Below, piece after piece: positions 5,456-28,348 of a stretch of DNA of 64,000 bases. The number at the start of each line of letters is the position of its first letter. Position 1 is the stretch's first letter. The stretch covers positions 12,998 through 76,997 of the forward strand of contig CALXBQ010000046.1 of NCBI GenBank assembly GCA_944386595.1, given 5' to 3'. A model generated the notes under the pieces. It saw nothing but the letters and a program-made list of their open reading frames with translations. It searched no databases and was not told the origin of the DNA. The position numbers and the translations under genes were made by a program. This stretch comes from an uncultured Clostridia bacterium (GTDB taxonomy: Bacteria; Bacillota; Clostridia; Peptostreptococcales; Anaerovoracaceae).

Positions 5456-7303
5456 TTAGGCAGCATTTGCAGCGTTATATATCTTCTGAACAGTCTCTGC
5501 AGACACTGCGTTAACACCGCCGATAACGGTCATATCGTACTTCTTTTCCTTTATGATTTTCGAAGCCGCATCAGTATCGTTGACGTTCACCAGAAGCAGC
5601 GGGCATCCGGTATGTGCCGCAAGTGCTCCGCCTGTGAGGGCGTCAGCATAATTGAGGCCGTAAGCTATGTACGCGGTCTTGCCGGCTTTGTTCTCGAAGA
5701 ACTTATCTACAACCATTTCATTGGTTTCATATCTGGTTTCGCCTGCAAGGCGTACAACGTCTGCACTGGCGCCTGTGGTAGTGTCCTCTACGTAATCAAG
5801 ACTTCTGAGATCGCTCTCAACACCTGCACTTACAGCCGTCGTTCCTCCGATTACATAGTACATGTCGTTAACAGATTTTATGCTCTTAAGATATTCGTCC
5901 TGTTCTGCGGTCAATGCGCTTCCTACCAGCAGAACCGGCATTCCGGTAGCGGATACGGAAAGAGCGTCAGGATAATTAAGCCCTGCGCATACGGCAATAT
6001 CCTTTAAATGATTTTCCCCGTTTTCCTTATCGATTTCAGCAATCTGCTTCAGAATCGCAATATTGGTGTCGTATCTGGTTTCTCCTCCAAGTCTTACCTC
6101 GTCGAATTTTTCCACAGCCTTCTCAAAGTCTGCGGACACCGCACTGGTTCCGCCGAGGATGTATACCTTTCCCTGGTAATCCATATGCTTGTTTATGTAT
6201 TCTACAACCATGTCCTCGGTTTCACCGTTTACAAGGAGTATAGGCGCATTCTCAACGTATGCGAGAGCGGTTCCGGAGAGAGCATCCGCAAAATCAGTTC
6301 CATCGGCAACGAGAACGGCGTTGAATCTCTTTCCGCTGAGAGTGTTTCTGAGTTTCTCTGCAACATTGATAGCAGTTTCATATCTGGTAGCGCCGGAAAT
6401 TCTTTCAGCCACTGCAAGAGGCGCATTTCCGCTGCCCCAGGACACAGTACCGAAGATTCCTGATCCGTCTTTGTAAGTAACCGTAACACCTATGACTGCG
6501 CCTTTTGTCTTATCGCTGTCTTCGATTTTGCAGGAAAGTCCGGTTCCGATAGTCTCGGTTTTTCCGTTCTTATCTGCGGTCCATCTTACGTTCACGTAGT
6601 TATTGAGATCAAAATCTTCAGCGGAAAGCACGGTGTTGTAATCCAGTGTTATGCTGTCAATCTTATAGGTTTCGCCGGCAACAGGCTGGGTTGCAGCTTC
6701 TCCCTCACTGTCCACAACCCGGACACTTTTAATGTTCTCAGGATAGTCAACGTACATTATGTGCTTATGGGCAGAGGCCTGGGCATGCAGGCTGATTACG
6801 CCCGTCACGTTCTCCGGAAATCCTTCGGCCGTCATGGTTCCTACCGTTGTCGAAGCCTTTCCGTACTGCTGAACCTCAACGGTCACGCCGTCCTTATCCA
6901 CGGTCCAGTCAAAAGCGCAGATTCCCGAAAGTCCCACAGCCTTCTCACCGGTTCCGCCCAGCTGAGCCTCATACACGGCAGGATCAGCATTAGCGGCACT
7001 GGTCTTCTTCAAAACGAGCTCAAGAGATTTGTCCTGAGAGTAGTTCAGGCTGAAAGTAAGGGTGTTGCCCACTCCGTAGGACTTACAGTTATTCAGGTCC
7101 ACGACGGTGCTGAAGCTGATTCCGTCTTCAATGTCGCCCTTAACCTTTTCGGTAGTTATGCCTTTATCGTCAACAACCACCACGTTAGGGTTCTCATTTT
7201 CGACCTGAGTCGTTTCACCCCAGCCGCTTACAGCAAACACAGGTACGGCACTCGTAACGAGCATGACTGCCGTAACCGCAAAAGCCACGATTTTCTTTTT
7301 CAT
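5456..7303 (-). CDS. secreted cell-wall/S-layer-type protein, variable N-terminal domains + 3x CWB2 anchor (paralog 1)
   Basis: Signal peptide MKKKIVAFAVTAVMLVTSAVPVFA. The C-terminal third has three ~95-aa repeats, each RxSGxTRYETA...ADGTDFADALSG...APILLV (cell wall binding repeat 2 type). Confidence 0.9.
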   Translation of the reverse strand: MKKKIVAFAVTAVMLVTSAVPVFAVSGWGETTQVENENPNVVVVDDKGITTEKVKGDIEDGISFSTVVDLNNCKSYGVGNTLTFSLNYSQDKSLELVLKKTSAANADPAVYEAQLGGTGEKAVGLSGICAFDWTVDKDGVTVEVQQYGKASTTVGTMTAEGFPENVTGVISLHAQASAHKHIMYVDYPENIKSVRVVDSEGEAATQPVAGETYKIDSITLDYNTVLSAEDFDLNNYVNVRWTADKNGKTETIGTGLSCKIEDSDKTKGAVIGVTVTYKDGSGIFGTVSWGSGNAPLAVAERISGATRYETAINVAEKLRNTLSGKRFNAVLVADGTDFADALSGTALAYVENAPILLVNGETEDMVVEYINKHMDYQGKVYILGGTSAVSADFEKAVEKFDEVRLGGETRYDTNIAILKQIAEIDKENGENHLKDIAVCAGLNYPDALSVSATGMPVLLVGSALTAEQDEYLKSIKSVNDMYYVIGGTTAVSAGVESDLRSLDYVEDTTTGASADVVRLAGETRYETNEMVVDKFFENKAGKTAYIAYGLNYADALTGGALAAHTGCPLLLVNVNDTDAASKIIKEKKYDMTVIGGVNAVSAETVQKIYNAANAA

Positions 7304-7382
7304 TAAATAAATTCCTCCTTTTTCCCTTTCACATCAAAGTGTGAAAAGCGTTCTGTCAAAAACAAAACCGTTCGTATAGAAG

Positions 7383-7411
7383 AGAGTACCACGGACGCAG
7401 AGAAAATTCAA
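7383..7411 (-). promoter_or_regulatory. candidate sigma-A promoter of paralog 1 (TTGAAT-17-TGGTACTCT)
   Basis: Minus strand reads TTGAAT, a 17-nt spacer, then TACTCT preceded by TGG (extended -10). It lies about 80 nt upstream of ATG 7303. There is no homopolymer in the spacer. Confidence 0.4.
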
Positions 7412-7433
7412 GAGGGAAATCATTCATATCTCA

Positions 7434-7961
7434 TCAATTGGATTTCGCCTCAAGATATTCCGTAAACGAATTAGCACCTAGCTTTCTACGTTTAGACAAC
7501 ATTCTGCTCCATATAACATTCCCCTGAGATTCACTTATTATATTCCGTCTATATGCTTCCACCATAATGTCTCCAGTAGTAAAATGCCCTAACCCGTACT
7601 CTTCGATAAATACATTAATATCTCTCAGATTATTACTTGCAACCGCTCCTCCGTATGTCTTTGCAAGGGCTATGGATGCCGCCTCGCCCTTTCCTATTAT
7701 TCTATGCCCCGGAGTCGGCTCTTCTGTCAGCTGATAAAAAACGGTGTATTCTTCAGTTCCGATTTCAATATTCCTTAATATGACCTGCCCGGTTCTCAAA
7801 AGAACGTCTGTGGCGTTTCTCAGATGCGGGACGCTGGGTCGGCTCAACTCTACATATACAGGTTCCGGTATAACAATTCTGTTCGGATACAGTTTAGTAA
7901 GCATACCTTCTTCTCCAACCCATAAAAACGCCGACAGACAATCGGTGTCAAAATACAGCAT
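7434..7961 (-). CDS. PIN-like nuclease domain protein (toxin-like third gene of the XRE/ImmA module)
   Basis: MLYFDTDCLSAF... (N-terminal acidic D), GKGEAASIALA and SNNLRD motifs are typical of PIN-like domains (DUF4411/DUF3368-like). ATG 7961 starts 1 nt after the ImmA stop. The track ORF start at 8024 would overlap ImmA by 62 nt; ATG 7994 is an alternative. Confidence 0.65.
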   Translation of the reverse strand: MLYFDTDCLSAFLWVGEEGMLTKLYPNRIVIPEPVYVELSRPSVPHLRNATDVLLRTGQVILRNIEIGTEEYTVFYQLTEEPTPGHRIIGKGEAASIALAKTYGGAVASNNLRDINVFIEEYGLGHFTTGDIMVEAYRRNIISESQGNVIWSRMLSKRRKLGANSFTEYLEAKSN

Positions 7962-7962
7962 A

Positions 7963-8718
7963 TCAATCAATGACAGCTCCCCCTTCTGATTCATCTCCAA
8001 AGACAATATCGTCTCTAAAAGCATCCAGCAGCAGTTCTTCGTATTTTCCCTCTGAAATGATATCAGATTTAAATAACTTCTCCGCCTGGCTTACATAATG
8101 TCCCAATACCTTTACATTCTCACCCTGAGGTGAAGGCTTATACAGTGAAACGTTCATTCCCATTTTCGCAGTTCTGCTTATTATACCTGCCTGAATCACT
8201 TCTACATCTGCAGGTGTAATTTCTCCATCATCCTTTAAACGAACCAGCATCGCCTGATGACTTATACCGAAGTACTGCTCCAATCTGATAATCTCCTCCG
8301 GAGTGATTTTCCGTTCTTCACCTGCTTTAATGCTCTGTATTTCCTCGTACAGTGCCGCCTGCGGCATCAGCAGATATGAAGCAAACTGATCCGCTTTCTT
8401 CTCATTCTCATTTCCGGTGCCGATTTTCGATGAGCACACTGTTGATTTAACGCCGTCGTCAAAATAGTAATGATACAGTTCATGAGCTAGGGTATATCGC
8501 TGTCTTCCCACCGATTTAGCCGAATTCACTACTATAATCGCCGATGCCTCACCCCTGAAGCAGGCTCCACTTATACTTTCTCCTAACGGATAAAAGATTA
8601 AAGTCAACGAGTCAATCATCTGAACCAATGCAAAAATGTCGATTGGCGAAAGCTCATTCTCACCCAGTTTTCGCCTTATGTATACCGCCTTATTATTCAG
8701 TTCTGTTTTATTTATCAT
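7963..8718 (-). CDS. ImmA/IrrE-family zinc metallopeptidase (COG2856)
   Basis: HEXXH motif in TLAHELYHYYFDDG. Overlaps the upstream XRE gene by 11 nt, the usual XRE-ImmA arrangement. Confidence 0.85.
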   Translation of the reverse strand: MINKTELNNKAVYIRRKLGENELSPIDIFALVQMIDSLTLIFYPLGESISGACFRGEASAIIVVNSAKSVGRQRYTLAHELYHYYFDDGVKSTVCSSKIGTGNENEKKADQFASYLLMPQAALYEEIQSIKAGEERKITPEEIIRLEQYFGISHQAMLVRLKDDGEITPADVEVIQAGIISRTAKMGMNVSLYKPSPQGENVKVLGHYVSQAEKLFKSDIISEGKYEELLLDAFRDDIVFGDESEGGAVID

Positions 8719-9061
8719 TTTTCACGTCCTCATAAAGTTTATCCATTTTAAACTGATTCAGTGCAATCTTATTTATTACAGCCAAGGATGATAAATCGTC
8801 ACGTTTAAAATCCGATGTTCTGAAAGCAATCGAATATGTAGGTGTAATTTTTTCACCTGATATAATACTGGAAACAGGGCAGCAAAAGAGTGTAGCCAAC
8901 TGCTCCAGTGCGCTTGAAGTTATCGTTCTTTCTCCCTTTTCGAACTTTGAAATCAGGCTCTGGTCTACCGATAAATAATCTGCAACCTGCTTCTGTGTAA
9001 GTCCAGATTTCTCACGCAAGTTCTTCATTTTTTCACCGATCTCATATATATCTGCGTTCAT
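8708..9061 (-). CDS. XRE-family helix-turn-helix transcriptional regulator
   Basis: LREKSGLTQKQVADYLSVDQSLISKFEKGERTITSSALEQLATLF is a canonical Cro/CI-type HTH. GAGGAGG precedes ATG 9061. Confidence 0.9.
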   Translation of the reverse strand: MNADIYEIGEKMKNLREKSGLTQKQVADYLSVDQSLISKFEKGERTITSSALEQLATLFCCPVSSIISGEKITPTYSIAFRTSDFKRDDLSSLAVINKIALNQFKMDKLYEDVKNDK

Positions 9062-9097
9062 TTCATTTCGTCCTCCTCAATTACATTATACGCATTT

Positions 9098-9139
9098 TTG
9101 TCATATTGTAAATATATTTTTATATTAACAATATGACAA
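9098..9139. promoter_or_regulatory. operator: perfect 12-bp inverted repeat overlapping the XRE promoter
   Basis: TTGTCATATTGT (9098-9109), an 18-nt spacer, then ACAATATGACAA (9128-9139). On the minus strand TTTACA-16-TATAAT follows or overlaps the right arm, and GAGGAGG precedes the XRE start. Confidence 0.6.
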
Positions 9140-9246
9140 GGCCGGTAGTGCACACCTCTATCCGGGTGAGGCAAATCGCCTTATAAAAATAAATAATTCC
9201 TATCATTGAATCCCGTATTTCATCAATGTGAAAATTTCTTAGGATA

Positions 9247-10368
9247 CTATCTCTTACCAGGGAAAGAGGAAATTGCCACAGGTATTATTACCAGCGTAGA
9301 GATTAGATCAAAAAATACCAAACATGGATTATCAGAGTTCAAGTTAGTTGCCAAAATGAAATCTAATATTATCAGCTCTGATACTATTACAATCTTACAA
9401 AATCGACAAATGTTTTTCTTAAAATGTCCAACTCCCATTAAACCAGCTAATGTCCCCAGTGCTTTTTTCTCCAGAAGCATCAGCAGATATCGTACTGCAT
9501 GTACCCTTTCCTTTAAATAGTTTCGGAAAAATAAGCAAATCTTAATAACTTGATATTTCCCATTTCCCTTGTTTCCGTTGCCATGATTCTGAAGTTCATA
9601 AATCATAAATCTCTCTAGCCTTTTGTTTACTTCTTCGATCCGGATTTTTTGTGATAAAAGGCCGATGAATGAGTAAATATATATATAATGACATATTAAT
9701 GTAATAAGAATGTAACCTACTATCAGTGATATCATTAATATCTTTATTTCACTGTTCTCTGACTGAATAATGCCACGATAGATGTACATGACCCAATTTT
9801 CCCTGGTAAATAAAATTTGAAATTCAAACCACGCTAAAGGTAGAGATGTAATTCCTAACATCTTTTTCTGGTGAAATATGCTTGCTGTATTTATTTGTTT
9901 AATAAAAACCGCGCAGTAATTAACTATCTCCAATATCAATAAAAGTGCACAAACAAAACATATCACAAATGAAACAGTACTTTTCCCATGGTTGCTGCAT
10001 ATAACAAACGTGGTGGTTATAGCAATAAGCATTATCATATCTCTATATTGGCCCGGCTCGTCTGTAGCTGTACCATTTTCAATATCATTGATCAGCTTTT
10101 GTGGAATTTCAATATTAAGTTCCTTCTCAATGTTTTGAATTTCAGTAAGTTTGTGTTCACGTATCATATTAAAAATACCAAGAGCCACTTTTGCACAACA
10201 TATTAATCCAATCCCTGCGGAAGCCTTTGTAAAATACGAGATTAGATTAATATACAGTTCAATTTCCCCCGTATACGTGACAACATTGTAGTAAATTACA
10301 TATAGCGTTCCCACTATTATCACTGCAACAAAAATTTTCAACAACCGAACAAAAGTCTTTTCTTTCAT
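9247..10368 (-). CDS. hypothetical polytopic membrane protein (373 aa), very AT-rich
   Basis: At least 6 hydrophobic helices (LLKIFVAVIIVGTLYVIYY, VSFVICFVCALLLILEIV, ILMISLIVGYILITLICHYIYIY...). No recognisable motif. Ends in TAG. Confidence 0.65.
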   Translation of the reverse strand: MKEKTFVRLLKIFVAVIIVGTLYVIYYNVVTYTGEIELYINLISYFTKASAGIGLICCAKVALGIFNMIREHKLTEIQNIEKELNIEIPQKLINDIENGTATDEPGQYRDMIMLIAITTTFVICSNHGKSTVSFVICFVCALLLILEIVNYCAVFIKQINTASIFHQKKMLGITSLPLAWFEFQILFTRENWVMYIYRGIIQSENSEIKILMISLIVGYILITLICHYIYIYSFIGLLSQKIRIEEVNKRLERFMIYELQNHGNGNKGNGKYQVIKICLFFRNYLKERVHAVRYLLMLLEKKALGTLAGLMGVGHFKKNICRFCKIVIVSELIILDFILATNLNSDNPCLVFFDLISTLVIIPVAISSFPGKR

Positions 10369-10648
10369 ATCTCTTATCTCACAATGGCAATTTACGTTTC
10401 AGGAAATCACTTTTCCAGTAGTTGGAAAAATTGCATGCCAGATATCAAAAACGTTTTATTTCCCCTTCTCTCCCACCTAAAATATTTCGCTCTCACTTTA
10501 GTGCCATGCGTCAAGGCATGTGTCAATGTGTTGTCCAGACCATCACTGTATCCATTGCGCAAATCAAGCTCGATTAAAGTTCTCAAATACAAGTGGAACG
10601 CTCAGAGCAGAATAATATCGCGTTAAAGGGGTGCCTTTATGCCATATT

Positions 10649-11911
10649 TTAGATGCAATATCCTCCGGAATATTTAACGTCTTCCTGCTTAATACATTCA
10701 CATGCTTTAAAATACATTTGAATTTGTCCCAATGGTAATTTTGAAATATTTATTTTCTCTCTTTTTATACTTGCGAGAACATACTTCATCATCGGTATAG
10801 CTTTCAATTTTATACATACATCCAACAAGTCAATCACCAAATCCACACACATTATTAGACTAATCCCATCCATCAATTCTTTAATAGCCGCTAGAGCATT
10901 ATCAATCTCATTTTTGCTAACTATGTATCCCATTTCCAATTGGCTATGAAGCTCCTTTAAAAACTTAATTCGTGTACTATATTCAAATAATGTCAATGTT
11001 GAGTAATTATATATATCAATAATCTGCTTAAATAATTCCTTGACTCGAGCAGCATCGTAGAATTCCTTTGATCTCCTAATAAAATTAATTCTTTGCTCAA
11101 TCATTCTGCACCTCTCATGCACGCACTCAGTTGACAGCGTTCTCTCATAATCACCTATATCCTTATCTGCAGATTCTACAGCATATTTTATCAATTTCTC
11201 TCCCAATTCTTCGTATTTTCTCATATGTGCTTCCGAAACACCCGACGCAAACGGCATAAAGTGAATTACATCAACTTTACTAGGCATTGGTAAACTATCC
11301 ACATCCTCAAAACTGCTCCATATATCATTTAACACTTCTTCAGCTTCAAAGCCCCCATTAATTAAAAGTTGCAAGATATTTATTTTTAATTTCATTTTTT
11401 CGTCATCGAGTAACTCCATATCTTTTATATGCCAGTATAACTCTCTAATTACAGCTTCCTCCTTTGCCTTATCGCCTGTTTGTCGTGCAAGTCTAAGTTT
11501 AAAATCGTAAACGTGTTCAAGAATATTCAAATTTTTACTATCTTCTAGAACAAACAATCGATTCTTTATATCTTCATACTCCTCTTTATGCTTATCATCG
11601 TTCTCAATTAAAAAGAGGTAGTCCGTATATACCATGGACTTTATATTATTATCCTCAAAGTTTCTTGCCCTATCTACAGATTTTTGCATGAAAAAGATAG
11701 CTTCACCCATATTCCCTGCACGTACTGAAATATTTCCCATAAACGCATACAGCAAAATTGCAAATCTTTTATGAGATGCATCATCGATGAGATGACTTTC
11801 ACTTTTTAAAGCATACTCTCTTGCCCTTGGTAGGTTTCCCTGACAAAAATAAATCCTTGCTCGTAAGAAAAAGCATACCGCTTTATCCTTCTCTTCAGTA
11901 TCCTTTATCAT
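10649..11911 (-). CDS. TPR-like all-helical repeat protein (420 aa from the first ATG); possibly the C-terminal part of a 616-aa frame interrupted by TAG
   Basis: Helical-repeat text (FFLRARIYFCQGNLPRAREYALKS, LLYAFMGNISVRAGNMGEAIFFMQKSVDRA). No good SD before ATG 11911. The frame stays open 31 codons upstream, to the TAG of ORF 12005..12499. Confidence 0.6.
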   Translation of the reverse strand: MIKDTEEKDKAVCFFLRARIYFCQGNLPRAREYALKSESHLIDDASHKRFAILLYAFMGNISVRAGNMGEAIFFMQKSVDRARNFEDNNIKSMVYTDYLFLIENDDKHKEEYEDIKNRLFVLEDSKNLNILEHVYDFKLRLARQTGDKAKEEAVIRELYWHIKDMELLDDEKMKLKINILQLLINGGFEAEEVLNDIWSSFEDVDSLPMPSKVDVIHFMPFASGVSEAHMRKYEELGEKLIKYAVESADKDIGDYERTLSTECVHERCRMIEQRINFIRRSKEFYDAARVKELFKQIIDIYNYSTLTLFEYSTRIKFLKELHSQLEMGYIVSKNEIDNALAAIKELMDGISLIMCVDLVIDLLDVCIKLKAIPMMKYVLASIKREKINISKLPLGQIQMYFKACECIKQEDVKYSGGYCI

Positions 11912-12004
11912 TGATTCCGCTCTTGGAATATCACCAAGCGAAATTAAATGAGATGTTCGATCAATTAAAATGTGTGTCCATTCCTCCGGATATAAATATT
12001 CTGC

Positions 12005-12499
12005 CTAATTATTTAGAATCTCATCTAATGTTTTATATGCGCCAACTATATCTAGCATTGCACTTTGGTATTCGCTTTTTACCCTCAGATATCCTATTTT
12101 TTCATTTTTAAACTTACAATAACATGGAGGTTTCTCAATAAAATCCCTATGTGCAAGCACCTGTCCTTTCTGATACCATGCTATTTGACATTTAAATAAA
12201 GCTAATGGATTCTTAGCTATGTAGAAGATCTCTAGTGCCCATAAGATCAAAAAAACTGTAATACCTGCGCTAATTTCCAGTGAAATATGGATTTTAGTAA
12301 CAATATAAAGAAAAAAACATAAGCTGGTTATCCAAAACACAATTTTAAAATAGTTTCTTCTGTGCAAAATCTTTGACCATATATTGGAACCATATGACAC
12401 TATTCCATATCTCAAAACAAAAAACAATAGCATAAAAGGGACCAATACATATATTGTCATGCCGAAGCCTTTTGCTATTTCTAAGAAAAAATCACTCAT
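12005..12499 (-). CDS. hypothetical membrane protein (164 aa, ~4 TM), in frame with the downstream TPR-like ORF
   Basis: MTIYVLVPFMLLFFVL, IVFWITSLCFFLYIV and GITVFLILWALEIFYI helices. Ends at TAG 12007..12005. GGAGGG lies upstream of ATG 12499 and TGGTATAAT further upstream. Confidence 0.6.
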   Translation of the reverse strand: MSDFFLEIAKGFGMTIYVLVPFMLLFFVLRYGIVSYGSNIWSKILHRRNYFKIVFWITSLCFFLYIVTKIHISLEISAGITVFLILWALEIFYIAKNPLALFKCQIAWYQKGQVLAHRDFIEKPPCYCKFKNEKIGYLRVKSEYQSAMLDIVGAYKTLDEILNN

Positions 12500-12714: not shown

Positions 12715-12758
12715 TTCCGTCGAAAATCTCTTTTTCTAAAACATTACTTATGTTGCTG

Positions 12759-14675
12759 TTACGCGATTTTCTGAACTGTTGCGTTGGAAACTGCGTTCTC
12801 TCCGCCGATTACAACCAGGCCTACATAGTTAGGACTAGCTTTAACTGCATCGATAGTGTCCTGAGCTGCATCGATATTGTTCTGGTTTACGAGAACCAGA
12901 GGTGCATGATTCTGAGCTGCGAGAACTCCACCAGTAAGAGCGTCGGCATAATCCATTCCAGTAGCTACAAATGCATACTTAGCCGTACTCATATTTAATG
13001 CTGAATCGTAGCTATTGTTATATTTTGCCATTACCATCTGATTGGTTTCATATCTGTCGGCTCCGCCTGTACGAGTTACCGTAGCATCATACAGATCAGT
13101 CTCAGAAAGCTCATCTTTGATATCGTCACTTACAGCATTTCTTCCACCGATAATGTCATAAGTTCTATGACCGCCTCTAGTTAATCCGTGCAGATAGCTT
13201 CTCTGCTCCCTAGTCAGCTCAGTTCCAACAAGAAGAACAGGTTTTCCAGTAGCTGCTGCAGAGAGTGCATCTGGGTAATTAGTTCCAGATGCTACTAAGA
13301 TATTGTCGAGATTTGTCGGGTCAGCTCCAACCACTCCTAAAGCATCATATTCCTGCATAACCTTGATATTGGTGTCATATCTAGTCTCTCCGGCGATTCT
13401 CTCTACGTCAACATTGTACTGTCCGAGACTGTCTTCGAACTCTGCAGATACTGCGTTAGTTCCACCTACAATATAAACAGTGGTTCCTGCATAGCTTGCA
13501 GTGTTCTGATCAATGTATGCTTTTACTTCATCCTCGTAATCGCTATTTACAAGAAGTATCGGTGCATTCATAGCATTAGCCAATGCCGTTACAGAAAGTG
13601 CATCTGCATAGTTGGTTCCGGTAGCTACGAAAATCTTAGTGAAGTTACCAGCGTTGTCCATCTGGTCAGCTACGAGCATAGCTGTTTCGTATCTGTTAGC
13701 TCCTGCCAGTCTGTCATAGATGGCAAGTGGGTTCATATCGCCTCCCCAAGTGTAGGTTCTGAAGATTCCAGAAGTCTGATTGCCTTTTACTTCTAAGGTA
13801 ATATAGCAGCCTTCATAAGTATTATCCAGAAGATTGATATATCTTCCGTCCCAACCAATATAGCCACTACCAGTGTCGATAACCGTAACGTTCCCGTTCT
13901 TGTCAGTTGCCTTCCAAGTAAGATCTGCATAATCAAGCATTTCATCTATGGACACTTCTGTGCCATCGTCAAACGTGATGCTCTCAACTCTGTAAGCTTC
14001 ACCTTTAACTACCTGATCCACAACCTGTTCTCTATCATACTTGTCAAGTTCAACACTCCAATCAGCCGGATCAGCCTTAACAATCTTCACATCAGTAACC
14101 TTAGTAGGTACAGCGTTCTGATAAACAACGGTGTGATAGTCAGTGTTGGTAGCGCTTGCCCAAGGTCTAACTTCTACAGATACAACTGTTACAGGCTCTA
14201 CAGAACCAAGATCCCATCTGAGATAGTCTTCAACTCCTGCACTGGTGCCCTTCTCGTCAACATTCAGGAATACAAATCCGTTGGCAGTATCAACATTCCA
14301 AGAGAAAGTTGTTATGCTCTTTTCAATCGGATTGCCATCATGGTTTGCATTTCCATACTTCCAAACACCATCATTATCAAAGTTTGCGACATAATGGTAT
14401 AAATCACCATTTGTGCCCCTGAGTGTAAGGTCGATTTCCCAGATTCCACTAGTTCTGAGCATATCAACATTAACATCATAGGACTTGTCGGCGCTTATAG
14501 ATTCATTATAGGTGTTCTCAATGCCACCTTTGAGATCATTCGCATCGTCTAGTACAACCGCATTAGCAGTAGGCATATCTACCTTATCAGACGGCTCCCA
14601 GACAGCGAATACAGGTACAGCGCTGGTAACAACCATAGCGGCTGTAACTGCAAAAGCCACAAGTTTCTTTTTCAT
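12759..14675 (-). CDS. secreted cell-wall/S-layer-type protein, variable N-terminus + 3x CWB2 (paralog 2)
   Basis: Signal peptide MKKKLVAFAVTAAMVVTSAVPVFA. Three repeats of RLAGANRYETA...ATGTNYADALS...APILLVN. C-terminus is ...GGENAVSNATVQKIA. Confidence 0.9.
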   Translation of the reverse strand: MKKKLVAFAVTAAMVVTSAVPVFAVWEPSDKVDMPTANAVVLDDANDLKGGIENTYNESISADKSYDVNVDMLRTSGIWEIDLTLRGTNGDLYHYVANFDNDGVWKYGNANHDGNPIEKSITTFSWNVDTANGFVFLNVDEKGTSAGVEDYLRWDLGSVEPVTVVSVEVRPWASATNTDYHTVVYQNAVPTKVTDVKIVKADPADWSVELDKYDREQVVDQVVKGEAYRVESITFDDGTEVSIDEMLDYADLTWKATDKNGNVTVIDTGSGYIGWDGRYINLLDNTYEGCYITLEVKGNQTSGIFRTYTWGGDMNPLAIYDRLAGANRYETAMLVADQMDNAGNFTKIFVATGTNYADALSVTALANAMNAPILLVNSDYEDEVKAYIDQNTASYAGTTVYIVGGTNAVSAEFEDSLGQYNVDVERIAGETRYDTNIKVMQEYDALGVVGADPTNLDNILVASGTNYPDALSAAATGKPVLLVGTELTREQRSYLHGLTRGGHRTYDIIGGRNAVSDDIKDELSETDLYDATVTRTGGADRYETNQMVMAKYNNSYDSALNMSTAKYAFVATGMDYADALTGGVLAAQNHAPLVLVNQNNIDAAQDTIDAVKASPNYVGLVVIGGENAVSNATVQKIA

Positions 14676-14751
14676 TACATCCTCCTTCTCACTTTTTTCA
14701 AAAGTGAACGTGTTTTAGTTTGATAATACAGCAACATAAATTATCGTGATA

Positions 14752-14781
14752 AGAGTACCACAGGCTTCTAAATTTTGTCAA
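14752..14781 (-). promoter_or_regulatory. candidate promoter of paralog 2 (TTGACA-18-TGGTACTCT)
   Basis: Minus strand reads TTGACA (14781-14776), an 18-nt spacer, then TACTCT (14757-14752) preceded by TGG. The leader box AGCAACATAAAT lies at 14730-14741. There is no homopolymer. Confidence 0.4.
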
Positions 14782-19832: not shown

Positions 19833-19902
19833 TACATCCTCCTTCTCACTTTATAAAAGTGATGTTTGCTTGATTAAGTTTAGCAACATAAATTTCACAG
19901 TA

Positions 19903-19933
19903 AGTATACCCCCCCCCGGTAAATATTTGTCAA
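19903..19933 (-). promoter_or_regulatory. sigma-A promoter of paralog 4 with a G9 tract in the spacer
   Basis: TTGACA (19933-19928), 19-nt spacer with C-run 19909-19917, TATACT (19908-19903). Confidence 0.7.
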
Positions 19934-20785: not shown

Positions 20786-20983
20786 AGAAATCACCTGGCG
20801 ATTTATCTATGTTGCTGCACTATCAAATCACCGGAGGTGTTTCTTGTTATTAAATTTCGCCGCGCAAAACCCGCAGCCTCGTTAATCTCAATAATTCCTG
20901 AGACAATATCGAGCCGCGACCTTCCTGGCCGCGACTCAATATACTGAAAATCGTGTTTACTTTAGTCTATTTATGTTGCTATG
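20755..20983 (-). other. conserved structured 3' UTR module of paralog 5
   Basis: Post-stop box at 20969-20981, GC hairpin at 20906-20942, pseudo-leader / anti-SD at 20807-20845, then the terminator. Confidence 0.55.
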
Positions 20984-22933
20984 TTATGCGATTTTCTGAA
21001 CTAATTCGTTGGATACTGCATTTTCTCCACCGATTACTACAAGTCCTGCATAGTTGGAATTAGATCCTGTGTTAACCATCTCAATGATGTCCTTAGCAGG
21101 GTCGATTTCGCTGTTGTTTACCAGTACGAGCGGTGCACCATTGTGTGCAGCCAGTGCTCCACCGGTAAGTGCGTCTGCATAATCGTTTCCAGTTGCAACG
21201 AATACATACTTAGCAGAACCCTTATTTTCAACGAACTTTTCCATAACCATCATGTTGGTTTCAAATCTGTCAGCTCCGCCTATTCTGGTTACGCTCTTTG
21301 CTTTGTAAGCTTTAGAGGAAAGTTCATCTTTTACATCATCGCTTACAGCATTTCTTCCGCCAATGATTGTGTAGTTTCTCTGATCTGCTGCTTCGCTATT
21401 AATCTCATAGATATAATTTCTCTGCTCCTTTGTAAGCGCATCTCCTACCAGAAGAACCGGCTTGCCAGTAGCAGCTGCAGAAAGTGCATCTGGGAAATTA
21501 TTACCGGAAGCTACGAGAATATCAAACATATCTCCGTCTGCTCCTATACCTTCTGGTGCCTTGTTATCAAATGCCTTCAGAACCGCAATGTTAGTTGCAT
21601 ATCTGTCAGCACCTGCAATTCTGTCTACATCTACTGCGAACTTCTTAAGCGCTGTTTCAAAGTCTGCGGATACAGCCTTTTCTCCACCAACGATATACAC
21701 GTTAGCATTGTAATTTGCTGCGTTATCCTTAATGTACTGTGCTACTTTTTCTTCATAATCGCCATTTACCAGAAGAACCGGTGCGCCTACTTTATCAGCA
21801 AGTGCGGTTACAGAAAGTGCATCTGCGTAGTTAGCTCCTGTAGCTACGAAAATGTTGGTAAATCCGTCTGCTGGCTTCATCTGATCAGCAACCTTTATAG
21901 CGGTTTCATATCTGTCAGCGCCAGCGATTCTCTGCTGAATAGCAATGGATTCTGCATCTTCACCCCATGTTGCCTCGCCGAAAATACCAGAAGTCTTGTT
22001 GCCGGAAACAGTAGCCGTTACATATGCACCCTTGTAATTGTCGTTGTTAACTTCGAAGTGAACATTCTTAGAAAGATTTTCTAACTTAACTTCTGTACCG
22101 TCTCTCTTAGTAACTGCCCAGTTATAGTTAACATACTCTCCTACATCACCAGTGTAACCCGTTACCTTTCCGTCTTTGATGACAAAGTTACTAATTTCAG
22201 TTCCATCATTAAAGGTGATGCTGTTAACCACATACTTTCCACCGAAAACCGGCTGGTCTACTACCTGAACTCTGCCATATTTATCAAGGTCAGGAATCCA
22301 TCCGGTCATTTCGTTCACTCCATTTACATACTCAGCCTTAACTACTTCTACGTCAGTTACATATTCAGGAACCTGATCCTGGTAAATGGTAGTAGTATCG
22401 CTAGCAGCACCAGCTTTGTAACCATCTCTGTTAACAACCGATACGGATACTACTTCTTCTGCTTCTGTTGGGAGATCCCACTCAAGGTAAGTATCTACAG
22501 CCGTTGTAGTATTCAGTGAGTCAACATTAAGAAAAATCTTCTTGGCTTTTTCGCTTACTTCCCAAGAGAAAGTAGTGATTCCCGTATTGATAGTCTTGTG
22601 TGATCCAGGTACACCGCCCTTCCAAACCTGATCATTATCAAATACAGCCTTTGTTGTGATAATCTTATCCTTATTGGTTCTCAGGTCAAGACTTAAAACA
22701 TAGTTACCACTGGTCTTTAACAGGTCAACGGTAACACCGTAGGTAGCACCTTCTGTTATAGAGGCTTCAATCTCGTTAGTGATTCCGCCTTTAAGGGTAT
22801 CCTTATCGAGAACAACTGCATTGGCTTCAGGCCAATCAGCCTGTCCTGCAGGACCCCACTCAGCAAATACAGGTACAGCGCTGGTTACTACCATAGCGGC
22901 TGTAACTGCAAAAGCCACAAGTTTCTTTTTCAT
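20984..22933 (-). CDS. secreted cell-wall/S-layer-type protein, variable N-terminus + 3x CWB2 (paralog 5)
   Basis: Signal peptide MKKKLVAFAVTAAMVVTSAVPVFA. Three repeats of RIAGADRYETA...ATGANYADALS...APVLLVN. C-terminus is GGENAVSNELVQKIA. Confidence 0.9.
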   Translation of the reverse strand: MKKKLVAFAVTAAMVVTSAVPVFAEWGPAGQADWPEANAVVLDKDTLKGGITNEIEASITEGATYGVTVDLLKTSGNYVLSLDLRTNKDKIITTKAVFDNDQVWKGGVPGSHKTINTGITTFSWEVSEKAKKIFLNVDSLNTTTAVDTYLEWDLPTEAEEVVSVSVVNRDGYKAGAASDTTTIYQDQVPEYVTDVEVVKAEYVNGVNEMTGWIPDLDKYGRVQVVDQPVFGGKYVVNSITFNDGTEISNFVIKDGKVTGYTGDVGEYVNYNWAVTKRDGTEVKLENLSKNVHFEVNNDNYKGAYVTATVSGNKTSGIFGEATWGEDAESIAIQQRIAGADRYETAIKVADQMKPADGFTNIFVATGANYADALSVTALADKVGAPVLLVNGDYEEKVAQYIKDNAANYNANVYIVGGEKAVSADFETALKKFAVDVDRIAGADRYATNIAVLKAFDNKAPEGIGADGDMFDILVASGNNFPDALSAAATGKPVLLVGDALTKEQRNYIYEINSEAADQRNYTIIGGRNAVSDDVKDELSSKAYKAKSVTRIGGADRFETNMMVMEKFVENKGSAKYVFVATGNDYADALTGGALAAHNGAPLVLVNNSEIDPAKDIIEMVNTGSNSNYAGLVVIGGENAVSNELVQKIA

Positions 22934-23004
22934 TACATCCTCCTTCTCACTTTTGCAAGTGATGTTTGCTTTGATTAAGTTTTAGCAACATAAATTTCAC
23001 AGTA

Positions 23005-23034
23005 AGTATACCCCCCCCGGTAAATATTTGTCAA
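23005..23034 (-). promoter_or_regulatory. sigma-A promoter of paralog 5 with a G8 tract in the spacer (the only 18-nt spacer)
   Basis: TTGACA (23034-23029), 18-nt spacer with C-run 23011-23018 (8 C), TATACT (23010-23005). Confidence 0.7.
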
Positions 23035-23662: not shown

Positions 23663-23969
23663 TCGTTCGAAAATCCCTTGTGGCTTTTGCTTTATGTTGC
23701 TGCATAAACTTAATCACTGGGAGATTTTCCTTGTTTTGTTTTCGTGGGGTATCCCCCCGAAAGGACAAAGTGTGCCGCCCGGATCTTCGGCATCCGGGTT
23801 ATGAGCCCGACGCGCTTACCAGCACCGGCCTGTCGCTTGCCTCAAGCGTTCTGTAATCTTCCTCCTGTCTTTTCGGTGAGACACTTTTTATATAATATCG
23901 AGCCGCGGGCATTAACTCCGCGACTCGATATCTTTTGAAAATCGTGTTTACTTTAGTCTATTTATGTTG
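23634..23969 (-). other. conserved structured 3' UTR module of paralog 6 (longer variant)
   Basis: Post-stop box at 23960-23972 overlaps the TAG stop. GC hairpin at 23895-23931. Pseudo-leader at 23691-23735, where TTTATGTTGCTGCATAAACTTAATCA mirrors the 5' leader TTTATGTTGCTAAAACTTAATCA. Confidence 0.55.
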
Positions 23970-25820
23970 CTACTGTCCTACTACGATTTCCTGAACCAAT
24001 TCGTTGGAAACTGCAGCCGTTCCACCGAATACGAAGATTCTGCCCTCACTAGCAACACCTTCACTTGCGATAATGTAGTTAGCAGTTTCAACGTTGTTAT
24101 TGTTTACCAATGCCAGAGGGTAAGGACCATAAGCTGCGGCATTTGCTGCGGCAACGAGACCGTCTGCAAAATCATCGCCCGTCGCTACGTATACAGCAGG
24201 TGTAGAATTCCACTTATCAGAGAATGCCTGATATACTCTCTCATTAGTTGTATATCTGTTATCTCCTGCCACTCTTACAACATCAGTCAGTACATTTGCT
24301 ACATATTCTCCACTCTGCAGTTCACCGAACAAATCAGCACTTACAGCATTGGTGCCACCAATTACGTAGTACTTGTCATTCTGTCCGAGAGAGCCTAAGA
24401 ACTTTCTCTGTGCACTGTTAAGGCTGTCACCTACCAGAAGCACTGGTTCTCCGGTTGCAGCTGCTGAAAGAACATCTGCATACGAGGTTCCAGATGCAAC
24501 GAGTATTTCAGCTGAAGAATCTATTTCCAGCTCATCGAGTACTGCAAGATTTGTTACATATCTATCTGCACCCGCAAGTCTCTCTACATCAGCGTATCTA
24601 TAAAGAGCATCTTCAAAACCCTGAGAAACGACGCTGGTTCCACCGATGATGTAAATCTTGGTTCCATTATAAGTTGCATTTGCATTTATAAAGTCTACGA
24701 CTGCCTCTTCATAATCGTCATTTACCAGAAGTACTGGATATTTTTTCTCAGCTGCAAGTGCAACTGCAGAAAGTGCATCAGGATAATCCGCACCGCTTGC
24801 AATTACAACTCCACCGAACTTCTGTCCTGACTGCAATGTTGCTTTCGCAAGATTCATCGCAGTTTCATATCTGTTAGCACCTGCATAACGTGTAAATCTT
24901 GCAAGAGCCTCAGAGTCAGCACCCCAAACTACTTCATCGAATACTCCAGTTCCTGCCTTACCGGATACCACTGCAGTAATCTTATGTCCCTGATCGTCAG
25001 CGGTTGGAGTGTACTTAACGTCTGTACCAACAACAGTAACACCATCTCTCAGCCAGGCGATATCAGTGTATGTTTTAATATCATCGGCTGTCGTAAGCTT
25101 GGTATCAGCTGTCAGTGTAACTTCGCTTATAGTGAGTTCCTGTCCGAGAACGGCCTGAGTAGCCTCAACATATTCAGGAACAGTATAACTTGCTCCCTGT
25201 CTTGCGGCCTCTATAGGGTCGTATTCTTCATTCTTAACGATAACCTTGAGGCTTTCTACGTTTTCCGGATGCTCATAATACATAGTCATTGCGACATCTC
25301 CGCCTGCATTGAAGTGAGAAATCCAGTCAGCTCCTTCAGCAAGTCCAAGCTTCTTTGTGGTTACTTTTGGGGTCTGAAGCCCAAGTTCAATAACCGATAC
25401 ATCCACTCCGTATTCAGATACATCGTACACAAGTTCAATCATTCCCTTGGTGTTAGAAACTATCTGTTCACCATTCACAGTGATATTAGATCCTGTGCTC
25501 CAACCACGAACAACGGTTGAAATCTGATCCTTCTGAGTACCATTTTCCTTGTCGGCAAAGAATAAATCGTACTGATAATAGTGTCCCTCTCCAGGACCCT
25601 TGTTTAAATCAATCACCTGACTGAAGTGAGCACCATCAGCAGCAGGGCCAGCTACAGCATAAGTTGCCCTATTCTCACCTGCATTTAAGGTGATCACATT
25701 TGGATTCGGATTAGTCGTCGGAGTAGTCGGCTTATCCGTCCAGTCTACAGCAAATACAGGTACAGCGCTGGTGATTATCATAGCTGCCGTAACTGCAAAA
25801 GCTACAAGTTTCTTTTTCAT
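23970..25820 (-). CDS. secreted cell-wall/S-layer-type protein, variable N-terminus + 3x CWB2 (paralog 6)
   Basis: Signal peptide MKKKLVAFAVTAAMIITSAVPVFA. Three repeats of RYAGANRYETA...ASGADYPDALS...YPVLLVN. The N-terminal type resembles paralog 1 (MYYEHPENVESL vs MYVDYPENIKSV). Confidence 0.9.
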   Translation of the reverse strand: MKKKLVAFAVTAAMIITSAVPVFAVDWTDKPTTPTTNPNPNVITLNAGENRATYAVAGPAADGAHFSQVIDLNKGPGEGHYYQYDLFFADKENGTQKDQISTVVRGWSTGSNITVNGEQIVSNTKGMIELVYDVSEYGVDVSVIELGLQTPKVTTKKLGLAEGADWISHFNAGGDVAMTMYYEHPENVESLKVIVKNEEYDPIEAARQGASYTVPEYVEATQAVLGQELTISEVTLTADTKLTTADDIKTYTDIAWLRDGVTVVGTDVKYTPTADDQGHKITAVVSGKAGTGVFDEVVWGADSEALARFTRYAGANRYETAMNLAKATLQSGQKFGGVVIASGADYPDALSAVALAAEKKYPVLLVNDDYEEAVVDFINANATYNGTKIYIIGGTSVVSQGFEDALYRYADVERLAGADRYVTNLAVLDELEIDSSAEILVASGTSYADVLSAAATGEPVLLVGDSLNSAQRKFLGSLGQNDKYYVIGGTNAVSADLFGELQSGEYVANVLTDVVRVAGDNRYTTNERVYQAFSDKWNSTPAVYVATGDDFADGLVAAANAAAYGPYPLALVNNNNVETANYIIASEGVASEGRIFVFGGTAAVSNELVQEIVVGQ

Positions 25821-25888
25821 TACATCCTCCTTCTCACTTTGTTAAAGTGATGTTTGCTTATTAGTTTAGCAACATAAATTTCACAGTA

Positions 25889-25919
25889 AGTATACCCCCC
25901 CCCGGTAAATATTTGTCAA
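25889..25919 (-). promoter_or_regulatory. sigma-A promoter of paralog 6 with a G9 tract in the spacer
   Basis: TTGACA (25919-25914), 19-nt spacer with C-run 25895-25903, TATACT (25894-25889). Confidence 0.7.
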
Positions 25920-26069: not shown

Positions 26070-26301
26070 AGTAATGAAAATCACATGTGGCTTTGAAATT
26101 TATGTTGCTGTAATATGCGATTTTCGGATGTGTTTTGTGAAGCGGCGCTCCACTTGAAACCTGCGGCTTTTGTCCGATATGCACGCGGCAAGTTTCAAAA
26201 GAAGCACTTGCGTTTATATGATACCGAGCCGCTGACCTTTCGGCCGCGGCCCGGTATTTCTTTAGAAAATCGTTTTCTATTCGTTTATGATTATGTTGCT
26301 A
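26033..26301 (-). other. conserved structured 3' UTR module of paralog 7 (diverged)
   Basis: Post-stop box variant TTATGTTGCTA at 26291-26301. Hairpin at 26221-26257. Second box AATTTATGTTGCTGTAA at 26098-26114, followed by TATGCGATTTTCGGA, which looks like a decayed copy of a gene 3' end. Confidence 0.45.
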
Positions 26302-28242
26302 TTATGCGATTTTCTGAACTACTTCGTTGGATACAGCGTTCTCTCCACCGATTACGATGAAGCGGTCGAATGCTGCTTCTCCGATATCAGTCTTGATGTT
26401 GCTTACGATATTCTTAGCCACCTTAGTGTTAGATTCGCTTACGAGTACGAGCGGTGCTCCATACTGTGAATTGGTTGCTGCAAGTACGCCACCGGTAAGA
26501 GCATCTGCATATCCGTTTCCGGACGCAACATATACAACATTTGCTGATCCTGCGCTGTACTTACCGCCAACCTTGAAGAAAGTCTCCACAATCTTCTTGT
26601 TGGTAGCATATCTGTCGGTTCCGCCGAGACGGGTTACCTGAGTTGTATCAGTTATGTAATCCTTAGACTTCAGCGCCTTCTCAACGCTCTTCGATACAGC
26701 GCTGGTTCCTCCTGCAATGTATATTGCATCTACTGTGTCAGCATCTTCAAGAGCCTTAAGATAAGTGTCCTGAACCGGCTTAATGCTGTCTCCTACGAGA
26801 AGCACAGGTCTTGCTGTTGCAGCTGCAGTCAGTGCGTCTGCGTAATTATTTCCAGTTGCTACAAAGAGCTGGCTCATTGCACCATCAGTTGCACCAAGTC
26901 CGGTGCCGGCAGTTTCGTTGCCTGCGTAAGCCTTGAGTATTGCAACGTTAGTCTGATATCTGTTAGCGCCTTCAAGTCTTGTTACATTCTTATACTTGTA
27001 AAGGCTGTCTTCAAAGCTCTGAGATACTGCACTTGTTCCACCAAGAACTACAATCTGAGTATTGCTGAAGCTTTTTGCATTTTCATCGATATATGCTTTT
27101 ACTGCAGCTTCGTGGCTTCCATCTACCAGAAGTATAGGAGCCTCAAGTTTGCTGGCAAGAGCAGTTGCAGAAAGTGCGTCTGCATAATCAGTTCCGGTAG
27201 CTACGATTACGTACTCAAGTTTGCCATTCTTAGCAATCATCTTGTCTGCAACCTTCATTGCAGTTTCATATCTGTCGTCACCGGCGATTCTGTCTTTAGT
27301 TGCAAGAGCCTCTGCATCAGCACCCCAGGTTACAGTATCAAAGATGCCGGATACTTTGTTACCCTTTACAGTAACGGTAACGAGAGCTCCCTCGAACTTC
27401 TTGACATCACTTATCATGAGACCATTACCGTCGTAAATCAAATCACAATCTGATGCGCCAATCGGGCTAATCTGATTCACACCATTCTTCATGGCTTTCC
27501 ATTCTACTGTTACATACTTTGCGAGATCGTCATAGCCGATAACTGTTCCATCATCTAACGTTACGCTGTTTACTCTGTATGCCTTGCCTGCTACCGGCTG
27601 GGTTGCAACCACAGGCTTGCCATCAGTACCAGTAACTACTGCAAAATTATTAGCAGGATCACACTCAACAACCTCTACAGACTGTACATCTACAGGAGCT
27701 TCGTTCTGATAGATAACGAACTGACCCGTTGTACTTAAAACTACAGATGATACAGTGTCAAACTCGCCAACAAGCTTCGAAGATACTGTTATTTCATCCC
27801 TTTCCGTCTCACCGAGTTCATCCATGACGAGAGTAACCTCTCCTGCTTTGAAAGTCCATTTCAAATTAACAATACCTTTAACTACTTTCTCTGTAGAATA
27901 GTCCTCTCCAATTCTAACACGAGCAGACCTGGATGTGTCAGGCCAAACCCAAGTCTTTACCAATCCAGCTTTGGCATTATCACCCTTACCTAAATGGATG
28001 TCAACTACGCTGTTGCCCGCAATTCTGTTGGTATCAACAATCATCTCGTAAGTAGCACCCTCTTCAGTAATAGCTGCGTTGATGTTTTCAACGATACCCT
28101 GTGACTGAGCCGGTGTCACTATAACCTCATTCTTGGTGAGGTCGATAGATGGCTGACCGCCGATCTCCCAAGCAAGTGCAGGTACAGCGCTGGCAACTAC
28201 CATAGCGGCTGTAACTGCAAAAGCTACAAGTTTCTTTTTCAT
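26302..28242 (-). CDS. secreted cell-wall/S-layer-type protein, variable N-terminus + 3x CWB2 (paralog 7)
   Basis: Signal peptide MKKKLVAFAVTAAMVVASAVPALA. Three repeats of RIAGDDRYETA...ATGTDYADALS...APILLVD. C-terminus is GGENAVSNEVVQKIA. Confidence 0.9.
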   Translation of the reverse strand: MKKKLVAFAVTAAMVVASAVPALAWEIGGQPSIDLTKNEVIVTPAQSQGIVENINAAITEEGATYEMIVDTNRIAGNSVVDIHLGKGDNAKAGLVKTWVWPDTSRSARVRIGEDYSTEKVVKGIVNLKWTFKAGEVTLVMDELGETERDEITVSSKLVGEFDTVSSVVLSTTGQFVIYQNEAPVDVQSVEVVECDPANNFAVVTGTDGKPVVATQPVAGKAYRVNSVTLDDGTVIGYDDLAKYVTVEWKAMKNGVNQISPIGASDCDLIYDGNGLMISDVKKFEGALVTVTVKGNKVSGIFDTVTWGADAEALATKDRIAGDDRYETAMKVADKMIAKNGKLEYVIVATGTDYADALSATALASKLEAPILLVDGSHEAAVKAYIDENAKSFSNTQIVVLGGTSAVSQSFEDSLYKYKNVTRLEGANRYQTNVAILKAYAGNETAGTGLGATDGAMSQLFVATGNNYADALTAAATARPVLLVGDSIKPVQDTYLKALEDADTVDAIYIAGGTSAVSKSVEKALKSKDYITDTTQVTRLGGTDRYATNKKIVETFFKVGGKYSAGSANVVYVASGNGYADALTGGVLAATNSQYGAPLVLVSESNTKVAKNIVSNIKTDIGEAAFDRFIVIGGENAVSNEVVQKIA

Positions 28243-28317
28243 TACATCCTCCTTCTCACTTATCTCTAAGTGAATGTTTGCTTTGATTTAAAATAGCAAC
28301 ATAATTTGTTCTCTGTA

Positions 28318-28348
28318 AGTATACCCCCCCCCGGTAAATATTTGTCAA
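28318..28348 (-). promoter_or_regulatory. sigma-A promoter of paralog 7 with a G9 tract in the spacer
   Basis: TTGACA (28348-28343), 19-nt spacer with C-run 28324-28332, TATACT (28323-28318). Confidence 0.7.

Follow-up and report, generated by a model that had tools for sequence, protein, structure and literature searches.

Why should seven wall-protein genes begin and end in nearly the same DNA when the proteins they encode differ strongly in between? The question is raised by seven CWB2 cell-wall protein paralogs (copies 1 to 7, c1-c7) in a 64-kb window, the term used here for the whole stretch of DNA analysed, which corresponds to positions 12998-76997 of contig C46 of a draft genome (G000; 1.86 Mb in 67 contigs, 49% guanine plus cytosine (GC), 94% complete). 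Copies were numbered by rising coordinate, and transcription runs from c7 towards c1. Five of the copies carry a poly-G tract in the promoter spacer, and the length of this tract is polymorphic between orthologous promoters; from strain to strain, cassettes have been replaced and mosaic genes formed. The explanation we favour, with a probability of about 0.6, is that the array encodes a strain-variable wall-protein repertoire which would be under slipped-strand phase variation.

Architecture of the array and conservation of its segments

The seven genes are located as follows:

5456-7303, minus strand: copy 1, 615 amino acids (aa); signal peptide, N-terminal variable region, three CWB2 repeats
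12759-14675, minus strand: copy 2, 638 aa; CWB2 paralog
15235-17205, minus strand: copy 3, 656 aa; CWB2 paralog, with the mosaic orthologue E2_6
17901-19832, minus strand: copy 4, 643 aa; CWB2 paralog
20984-22933, minus strand: copy 5, 649 aa; CWB2 paralog, N-terminal region modelled
23970-25820, minus strand: copy 6, 616 aa; CWB2 paralog
26302-28242, minus strand: copy 7, 646 aa; CWB2 paralog

Open reading frame (ORF) calls and a domain scan agreed with an initial annotation of this DNA, which had described seven minus-strand genes of 615-656 aa with one shared architecture. All seven are complete ORFs in the same orientation, each with a promoter, a Shine-Dalgarno sequence and a start codon. 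The tandem arrangement given there holds for six copies (c7 to c2); copy 1 is split off by a 5.4-kb island. The suggested hidden Markov model check returned three PF04122 (CWB2) repeats in the C-terminal half of every product (E = 7e-48 to 1.6e-58; 161-196 bits against a cut-off of 24.9 bits), with overall amino acid identities of 36-58% among the seven. The array proteins belong to the Cwp-like CWB2 family. Sequence matches in PDB were to Cwp6, Cwp8 and the high-molecular-weight part of SlpA from Clostridioides difficile, in the CWB2 part only, and scores against the NCBIfam SlpA equivalog NF033435 were 71-114 bits (650 required), again through CWB2 only, with no match for copy 1. By inspection, the predicted Sec signal peptide, MKKKLVAFAVTAAMVVTSAVPVFA followed by V or W, has a positive charge, a hydrophobic stretch and an A-x-A type site; none of the signal peptides has a lipobox. 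No intragenic tandem repeat families were found in the array genes besides the CWB2 repeats. SLH domains were not detected in G000, so that CWB2 is the sole wall-anchor type detected of the two searched. That the genes form a surface-antigen or adhesin repertoire, as had been proposed, is plausible, and their products would be S-layer-type or adhesin components exposed at the cell surface. An exact database look-up of copy 5 returned no record, and scans of JGI metagenomes with the promoter pattern and the protein profile gave no matches.

Conservation was very unevenly distributed along the genes, as seen from mean pairwise amino acid identity and from the fraction of conserved residues encoded by the same codon:

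Signal peptide: identity 0.87; same-codon fraction 0.80 (c2-c7 0.88)
N-terminal region: identity 0.30; same-codon fraction 0.43
CWB2 half: identity 0.50; same-codon fraction 0.49
Last 20 codons: identity 0.71; same-codon fraction 0.66 (c2-c7 0.78)

The ends are thus better conserved than the middle, as predicted, and the strong divergence reported for the N-terminal ~300 aa (30% mean identity) was borne out. A 59-nt leader string was exact in c2-c5, with one mismatch in c7 and three in c6, and had no matches in shuffled sequences, in line with the near-identity noted before. The ~115 nt upstream are 94-96% identical among c3-c6 (86% for c7), and downstream conservation extends ~80-160 nt beyond the stop codon. 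Likeness at the DNA level is confined to the 5' end (promoter, leader, signal peptide) and to the last ~50 nt plus the 3' untranslated region (UTR). A GENECONV-like permutation test identified significant shared tracts at the extreme 3' ends (c2/c3, p = 0.0005; c4/c5, p = 0.001) and no conversion tracts in the gene bodies within the window. Together with the codon fractions by segment, these 3'-only tracts indicate that DNA-level homogenisation is limited to the two ends. Judging by its scrambled synonymous sites, the CWB2 anchor is maintained by ordinary protein-level selection and is not homogenised by conversion; the C-terminal half is therefore conserved as a protein domain (50% aa identity) but not as DNA. 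The suggestion of concerted evolution by gene conversion survives for the homogenised ends and for cassette exchange, and fails for the anchor and the bodies. Two N-terminal subtypes, one of them uniting copies 1 and 6, could not be upheld: these are motif variants inside one homologous family, copies 1 and 6 being 27% identical in the N-terminal region and overall no nearer to each other than to the remaining copies.

Poly-G tracts in the promoter spacers

The promoters of the seven copies are as follows:

7383-7411, minus strand: copy 1, TTGAAT-17-TACTCT, TGG extended -10, no poly-G
14752-14781, minus strand: copy 2, TTGACA-18-TACTCT, TGG extended -10, no poly-G; leader class C
17278-17308, minus strand: copy 3, TTGACA-AATATTTACC-G9-TATACT; G9 at 17284-17292, spacer 19 nt
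19903-19933, minus strand: copy 4, G9 at 19909-19917, spacer 19 nt
23005-23034, minus strand: copy 5, G8 at 23011-23018, spacer 18 nt
25889-25919, minus strand: copy 6, G9 at 25895-25903, spacer 19 nt
28318-28348, minus strand: copy 7, G9 at 28324-28332; leader class B

Promoters were thus found for every copy, as the initial annotation had it; the terminators it also assigned to each gene were recovered, as terminator-like hairpins with a T run, only downstream of copies 3, 4, 5 and 7. Promoters of c3-c7 follow the pattern TTGACA-N10-Gn-TATACT, with Gn placed between the -35 and -10 hexamers and no TG extended -10. Since n is 9 in c3, c4, c6 and c7 and 8 in c5, the spacer measures 19 or 18 nt, and a consensus scan allowing spacers of 16-18 nt picked up only copy 5 among the five tract promoters. 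Within the 64-kb window, G or C runs of at least 8 are restricted to these five tracts. Genome-wide, the distribution of G/C runs is bimodal, with 58 runs of length 6 and 8 of length 7, followed by 4, 6, 4 and 1 runs of lengths 8 to 11.

Syntenic arrays in other assemblies were reached through homologues of the N-terminal region. Two of these assemblies, E1 (ERZ16268232) and E2 (ERZ16268096), are 94-96% identical to the window in the flanks and 98.5% identical to each other, compared with 87% for the flanks of G001, which belongs to another species. G9 predominated among the pure tracts of eight source sequences, G8 made up about a quarter, and G10 occurred once; the interrupted forms G3AG6, preceding a frameshifted copy, and AG7 were also seen. 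When promoters were grouped as orthologous by their unique upstream sequence, tract length differed within all four strictly orthologous groups:

First position: G9, G8, G9, G9
Position of c3: G9, G8, G9
Third group: G9, G8
Fourth group: G9, G10, G3AG6

For instance, the orthologous promoter of copy 7 has G9 in E1 and in locus L028, and G8 in E2. The ~38-nt core around the tract showed just one single-base and one two-base variant among the retrieved copies. Identical tract states were also seen in independent samples (G9 in both L024 and L025; G8 before both E1_4 and E2_3). Two marks of contingency loci are therefore present, namely a tract at a length-sensitive position and polymorphism between close strains with conserved flanks.

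At least four further tracts in G000 are flanked by a -35 and a -10 hexamer, two of these tracts preceding other CWB2 genes, and others lie inside or beside promoter spacers:

C49:4089-4098 (G10) and C60:31639-31649 (G11): tracts before large CWB2 proteins (1154 and 1030 aa)
C9:3429-3438: tract before a membrane transporter gene
C3:68867-68874: tract before a gene for a lipoprotein-type binding protein
C22:1324-1332 and C44:583-592: tracts inside or beside promoter spacers of other genes

Together, these G8-G11 tracts may represent a genome-wide set of contingency promoters. In C49 the tract reads G10 in G001 as well as in G000. Within the genus, promoter tracts of the type TAC-G8 or longer and an expansion of CWB2 proteins occur together only in G000 and G001. 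A family-wide poly-G habit was considered and rejected, most genomes of the family having 0-2 runs of G9 or longer. Mismatch-repair loss as a cause of tract instability was likewise dismissed, as both MutS and MutL are encoded, and no repair defect would therefore boost slippage.

Exchange of gene bodies between strains

Despite the high identity of the flanks, only three bodies of the window have orthologues in E1 or E2: c6 (98-99% aa identity to E1_3), c1 (98% to E1_9) and c3 (99% to E2_6 in the N-terminal part, 86% in CWB2). The remaining bodies are 25-50% identical to E1 and E2 genes in the N-terminal part. In E1, E2 and L028, the place of the c7 body (~26355-28172) is taken by an unrelated gene of 615 aa. 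Comparison of c7 with E1_1, the gene at the same position, gave 86-100% identity through promoter, UTR and signal peptide, then 35-50%, with a recovery to ~75% from 53 nt before the stop codon. Identical 83-nt leaders also precede different bodies, the leader of c5 being that of E1_6, although the N-terminal regions are 32% identical. Exchange breakpoints fall at the end of the signal peptide and ~50 nt before the stop, at the conserved modules. Same leaders, different bodies and breakpoints at module borders argue for real cassette exchange, and the claim that the genes are built like exchangeable cassettes is upheld by this cross-strain comparison, in which the same leader, signal peptide and 3' end surround unrelated bodies.

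A mosaic was observed in the pair c3/E2_6, whose nucleotide profile runs at 97-100% identity over 1.6 kb, drops to 57-72% over ~400 nt and returns to 92-94%. Synonymous divergence (dS) rose from 0.024 in the N-terminal part to 0.478 in the CWB2 part, and the donor of the divergent segment was not among the sampled paralogs. Ratios of nonsynonymous to synonymous divergence (dN/dS) in the orthologue pairs were 0.07-0.28, indicating purifying selection, by which positive selection through point mutation was rejected for these pairs; diversity would thus arise as old alleles are exchanged, rather than by fast point mutation.

Possible recombination scars were noticed separately in the retrieved loci. 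These are a tandem duplication of the unit G9-TATACTTACAGAGAACAAATTATGTTGCT, which may be an assembly artefact, partial leader duplications, and a frameshifted copy with the interrupted tract G3AG6. The positions concerned are:

L028 9860-9925
L021 ~6760-6815 and 4440-4600
L023 ~15480-15558

RNA elements in the leaders and 3' untranslated regions

Conserved elements flank the coding sequences on both sides:

17256-17268, minus strand (also 19881-19893, 22983-22995 and 25867-25879): 5' leader box ATTTATGTTGCTA; variants at 28294-28305 and 14729-14741
15221-15232, minus strand (also 17887-17898, 20970-20981 and 23961-23972): post-stop box TAGCAACATAAA(T), reverse complement of the 5' box
26290-26301 and 12747-12758, minus strand: post-stop box variants, covarying with the 5' box of the same gene
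17212-17234, minus strand: hairpin abutting the Shine-Dalgarno sequence, CACTTT..AAAGTG-AGAAGGAGG, with an equivalent in all seven leaders
15158-15194, minus strand (also 17825-17860, 20906-20942, 23895-23931 and 26221-26257): conserved GC hairpin of the 3'UTR, ~45 nt past the stop

In c2-c7, a leader box of 12-13 nt is the reverse complement of a box located 0-5 nt past the stop codon of the same gene; copy 1 is without this pair. Matched variants occur in three leader classes (ATTTATGTTGCTA with TAGCAACATAAAT, ATTATGTTGCTA with TAGCAACATAAT, and TTATGTTGCTG with CAGCAACATAA). The two compensatory changes between the boxes favour pairing within one mRNA and suggest that the 5' and 3' UTRs of a transcript may join in this way. 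The stem of the Shine-Dalgarno hairpin is kept in other strains by compensatory changes (CACCC/GGGTG, CACCT/AGGTG). Such UTR elements account for part of the nucleotide conservation at the gene ends, and suggest long-lived and highly translated mRNAs, which are usual for S-layer genes.

The N-terminal domain, predicted to be exposed, and its distribution

All seven N-terminal regions proved homologous by profile, in a profile that included c6. No match to this region was found in Pfam or NCBIfam. A profile search run exhaustively over 1.84 billion representatives recovered only 34 proteins at E <= 1e-3, in most of which the domain begins at about residue 25, directly behind the signal peptide. 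A word-indexed search yielded 59 proteins, all with CWB2, and most homologues were found on contigs of 2-5 kb. Given so few homologues in exhaustive searches, the N-terminal family would be restricted to this lineage, in which it has diversified strongly. The AlphaFold 2 model of c5 residues 25-335 (mean predicted local distance difference test score 89.9, predicted template modelling (TM) score 0.87) is all-beta with two domains, the first of which weakly resembles a ConA-like jelly roll in this model. A Foldseek search of viral structures (BFVD) gave nothing specific, with weak generic beta-sandwich matches.

CWB2 proteins number ~15 each in G000 and G001; G002 has one, and none turned up in G003, in G004 or in a search of 14 further genomes of the family. 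Elsewhere in the order, ~12 occur in a genome from another family. This distribution suggests that the whole anchoring system may have been acquired by one sublineage.

Proposed mechanism and alternative explanations

Under the favoured explanation, the products would be secreted and held non-covalently at the wall, with a Sec signal peptide, an exposed region of ~300 aa, probably a lineage-restricted pair of beta-sandwiches, and the triple CWB2 anchor. Each gene is a transcription unit in its own right, set between two modules: a near-invariant one at the 5' end, with promoter, 5'UTR and the codons of the signal peptide, and a conserved one at the 3' end, with the last ~50 nt and the 3'UTR. 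In the comparison of assemblies, both serve as homology arms for body exchange. Slipped-strand mispairing at the G tract would change the spacer length, the 18-nt spacer probably being the stronger state and 19 nt weak or off. The five tract genes (c3-c7) would probably be switched independently of each other, and with slippage toggling each promoter, the set of paralogs on display would differ from cell to cell. With their tract-free TGn extended -10 promoters, copies 1 and 2 would be steadily expressed. Phages and host antibodies would be the likely selective agents.

Several points weigh against such a scheme. Every compared sequence is a metagenome assembly, in which homopolymer length can be mis-called, and both the switching within a population and the length that corresponds to the ON state are inferred. 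Tracts other than G8 and G9 are rare, G9 being dominant, and a G7 tract, which would give a 17-nt spacer, was never seen among the retrieved promoters; the optimal promoter spacer is 17 nt. The G8 at the c5-like position is common to the window, E1 and E2, which fits a slow indel as well as a fast switch. The genome also has MutS and MutL. Surface exposure is a prediction, any ligand is hypothetical, and Foldseek matches of the modelled region in PDB are weak (GH16 glucanases, legume lectins, galectins and SPRY domains; E = 1e-4 to 1e-3, target-normalised TM-scores 0.3-0.5).

Some of these points also favour another account, in which the genes are an ordinary diverged wall-protein family, leader and signal peptide stay alike by nucleotide-level constraint, the tract is passive or structural (e.g. 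a regulator site), and G8/G9 differences are slow indels or assembly noise. The predominance of G9, a G8 common to three assemblies at one position, the missing G7, the intact mismatch repair genes and the constrained RNA elements of the UTR all speak for it. It is harder to reconcile with tract lengths that differ in four of four orthologous groups around an almost invariant core, or with the bimodal run-length distribution of the genome. In addition, the Gn spacer recurs in unrelated promoters with different flanks, which argues against a sequence-specific binding site, and constraint alone leaves identical leaders before unrelated bodies unexplained. We consider this account unlikely, without being negligible.

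The low GC content of the array (39-45%, compared with 51-55% in the flanks and a genome mean of 49%), which upholds the difference noted initially, could also mean that it is mainly a horizontally acquired island and that strain differences are independent acquisitions. The lack of CWB2 in two of four other species of the genus and in the 14 other family genomes searched would agree with this. However, the array occupies the same site between PhzF and QueT in the two assemblies for which both borders were retrieved, and adjoins PhzF in three more. Differences are limited to the bodies, the leaders and the segments between genes being orthologous by position. Repeated acquisition is thus improbable; an ancient one by the G000/G001 lineage would be compatible with phase variation of an exchangeable repertoire. 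Still less probable, in fact barely credible, is a system of silent cassettes and one expression site as in pilE/pilS, Campylobacter fetus sap or Mycoplasma vsa, in which one copy is expressed and the others donate by gene conversion or site-specific inversion. Conserved 5' and 3' ends, the inverted boxes of 12-13 nt that bracket each gene, and the one mosaic orthologue pair would suit it. Silent cassettes were nevertheless rejected, each of the seven co-oriented genes being a complete transcription unit (ORF, promoter, Shine-Dalgarno sequence and start codon); nor was there a recombinase, either among the scanned ORFs or among genes called for the syntenic loci that were retrieved, or a conversion tract in the gene bodies of the window. 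A tblastn search of the long intergenic regions likewise gave no gene remnants or silent cassettes.

Returning to the phase-variable repertoire, its most specific form is a walled Firmicute with Vlp-style contingency: one control module set before five to seven interchangeable CWB2 cassettes, with combinatorial and reversible display and with trading between strains at the module borders. The portable module would consist of the spacing-sensitive G8/G9 promoter, a structured leader pairing with the post-stop box, and the fixed signal peptide. To this more detailed version we give somewhat less than an even chance.

Borders of the array and neighbouring features

A PhzF/PTA border was found at one end of the array in two syntenic assemblies, and QueT/SufC at the other end in one of them. 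The slot 3' of the c2-type gene is a variable island across strains, after which a c1-type gene follows in the window and in E1; leader class C at the array position of copy 2 recurs in E1, E2, L024 and L027. The slot has the following extents:

7434-12499, minus strand: island of the window, 5.4 kb, 35% GC, separating copy 1 from copies 2-7
L022 12184-14114, L024 12308-18346 and L027 11937-13196: equivalent slot in other loci

The island of the window encodes a CapH-like HTH protein, a CapP-like ImmA/M78 peptidase (capP, E = 4e-27), a TPR protein and membrane ORFs. Cargo elsewhere comprises Mrr_cat and AAA_13 (E1), DUF1848 and nSTAND3 (L024), and an AAA_23/AAA_21 ATPase (L027). From this gene content, the variable slot beside the surface-protein array looks like a defence-island hotspot.

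Three side observations were made around the array. A ParE / Phd-YefM toxin-antitoxin pair lies behind the first array gene in E1, E2 and L028, and the window is without it:

L021 3694-4267, L023 6575-6847 and L028 12119-12692: ParE / Phd-YefM pair

A preQ1 riboswitch-like match (5248-5296, minus strand) is located directly upstream of the QueT transporter gene (4751-5239), a classical position; at 26.7 bits (E = 0.12) it is below the gathering score of 39. It lies outside the array and is the sole notable match to known RNA families, none having been found within the array. Finally, repeats ~52 bp apart at 28613-28859, between the c7 promoter and the PhzF gene (repeat family D17), read GTGGGCCA...TGGCCCGCA and form hairpins.

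Relation to known systems and significance

The closest architectural parallel is with the Cwp/SlpA proteins of C. difficile, which share the signal peptide, the variable exposed part, the triple CWB2 anchor, the clustering of paralogs and exchange at the strain level. The passages of PMC6254364 that cite Dingle 2013 and Willing 2015 describe, respectively, a strain-variable exposed S-layer domain exchanged by homologous recombination and the binding of CWB2 proteins to the anionic wall polymer PSII. Unlike in that system, similarity is confined to CWB2, the N-terminal domain of the array is unrelated and lineage-restricted, five to nine tandem paralogs of similar size each have the same leader, and no secA2 or cwp84 context was seen at the array. 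The phase-variable CWB2 protein CwpV (PMC2784873) depends on a recombinase-driven 195-bp invertible element downstream of its promoter, whereas the array has a candidate spacer tract and neither an invertible element nor, among the ORFs scanned, a recombinase.

In its regulation the array is more like the vlp genes of Mycoplasma hyorhinis, which share a highly conserved 5' region that takes in the signal peptide. Both are clusters of divergent surface genes with a homopolymer in the promoter of each gene (here c3-c7) behind a conserved 5' region. Insertions and deletions in a promoter poly-A tract switch vlp transcription on and off, according to the account of Citti and Wise 1995 given in PMC10502178. 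In contrast, the array has poly-G tracts, type I signal peptides and CWB2 anchoring in place of lipoproteins, no in-frame size-varying tandem repeats, and a walled Firmicute as host, and its switching is predicted from the sequence. Intergenic poly-G tracts of Campylobacter are typically G8-G11 (PMC8355987). Tracts of Neisseria and Campylobacter belong to Gram-negative pathogens and usually switch a single gene each, whereas here one module is replicated before tandem paralogs. In Neisseria porA and opc, a G/C tract between or near the -35 and -10 hexamers sets spacer length and promoter strength.

The literature searched contained no report of repeat-tract phase variation of CWB2 or S-layer genes, and to our knowledge the phase variation described among Clostridia and gut commensals works almost entirely by invertible DNA (CwpV, Bacteroides promoters). 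If the proposed mechanism is true, the array would be the first CWB2 or S-layer family in which phase variation is driven by a repeat tract, and such a switch would add a second route of phase variation in these bacteria. It would also account for the fragmentation of such loci in metagenome assemblies. By means of the conserved 190-nt leader, the repertoire and the states of its tracts can be amplified and typed from metagenomes. In C. difficile, S-layer and Cwp-type proteins serve phages as receptors and are targeted by the immune system (PMC10100898); a switchable and exchangeable repertoire, if confirmed, would shape phage susceptibility and antibody recognition of this uncultured gut lineage.

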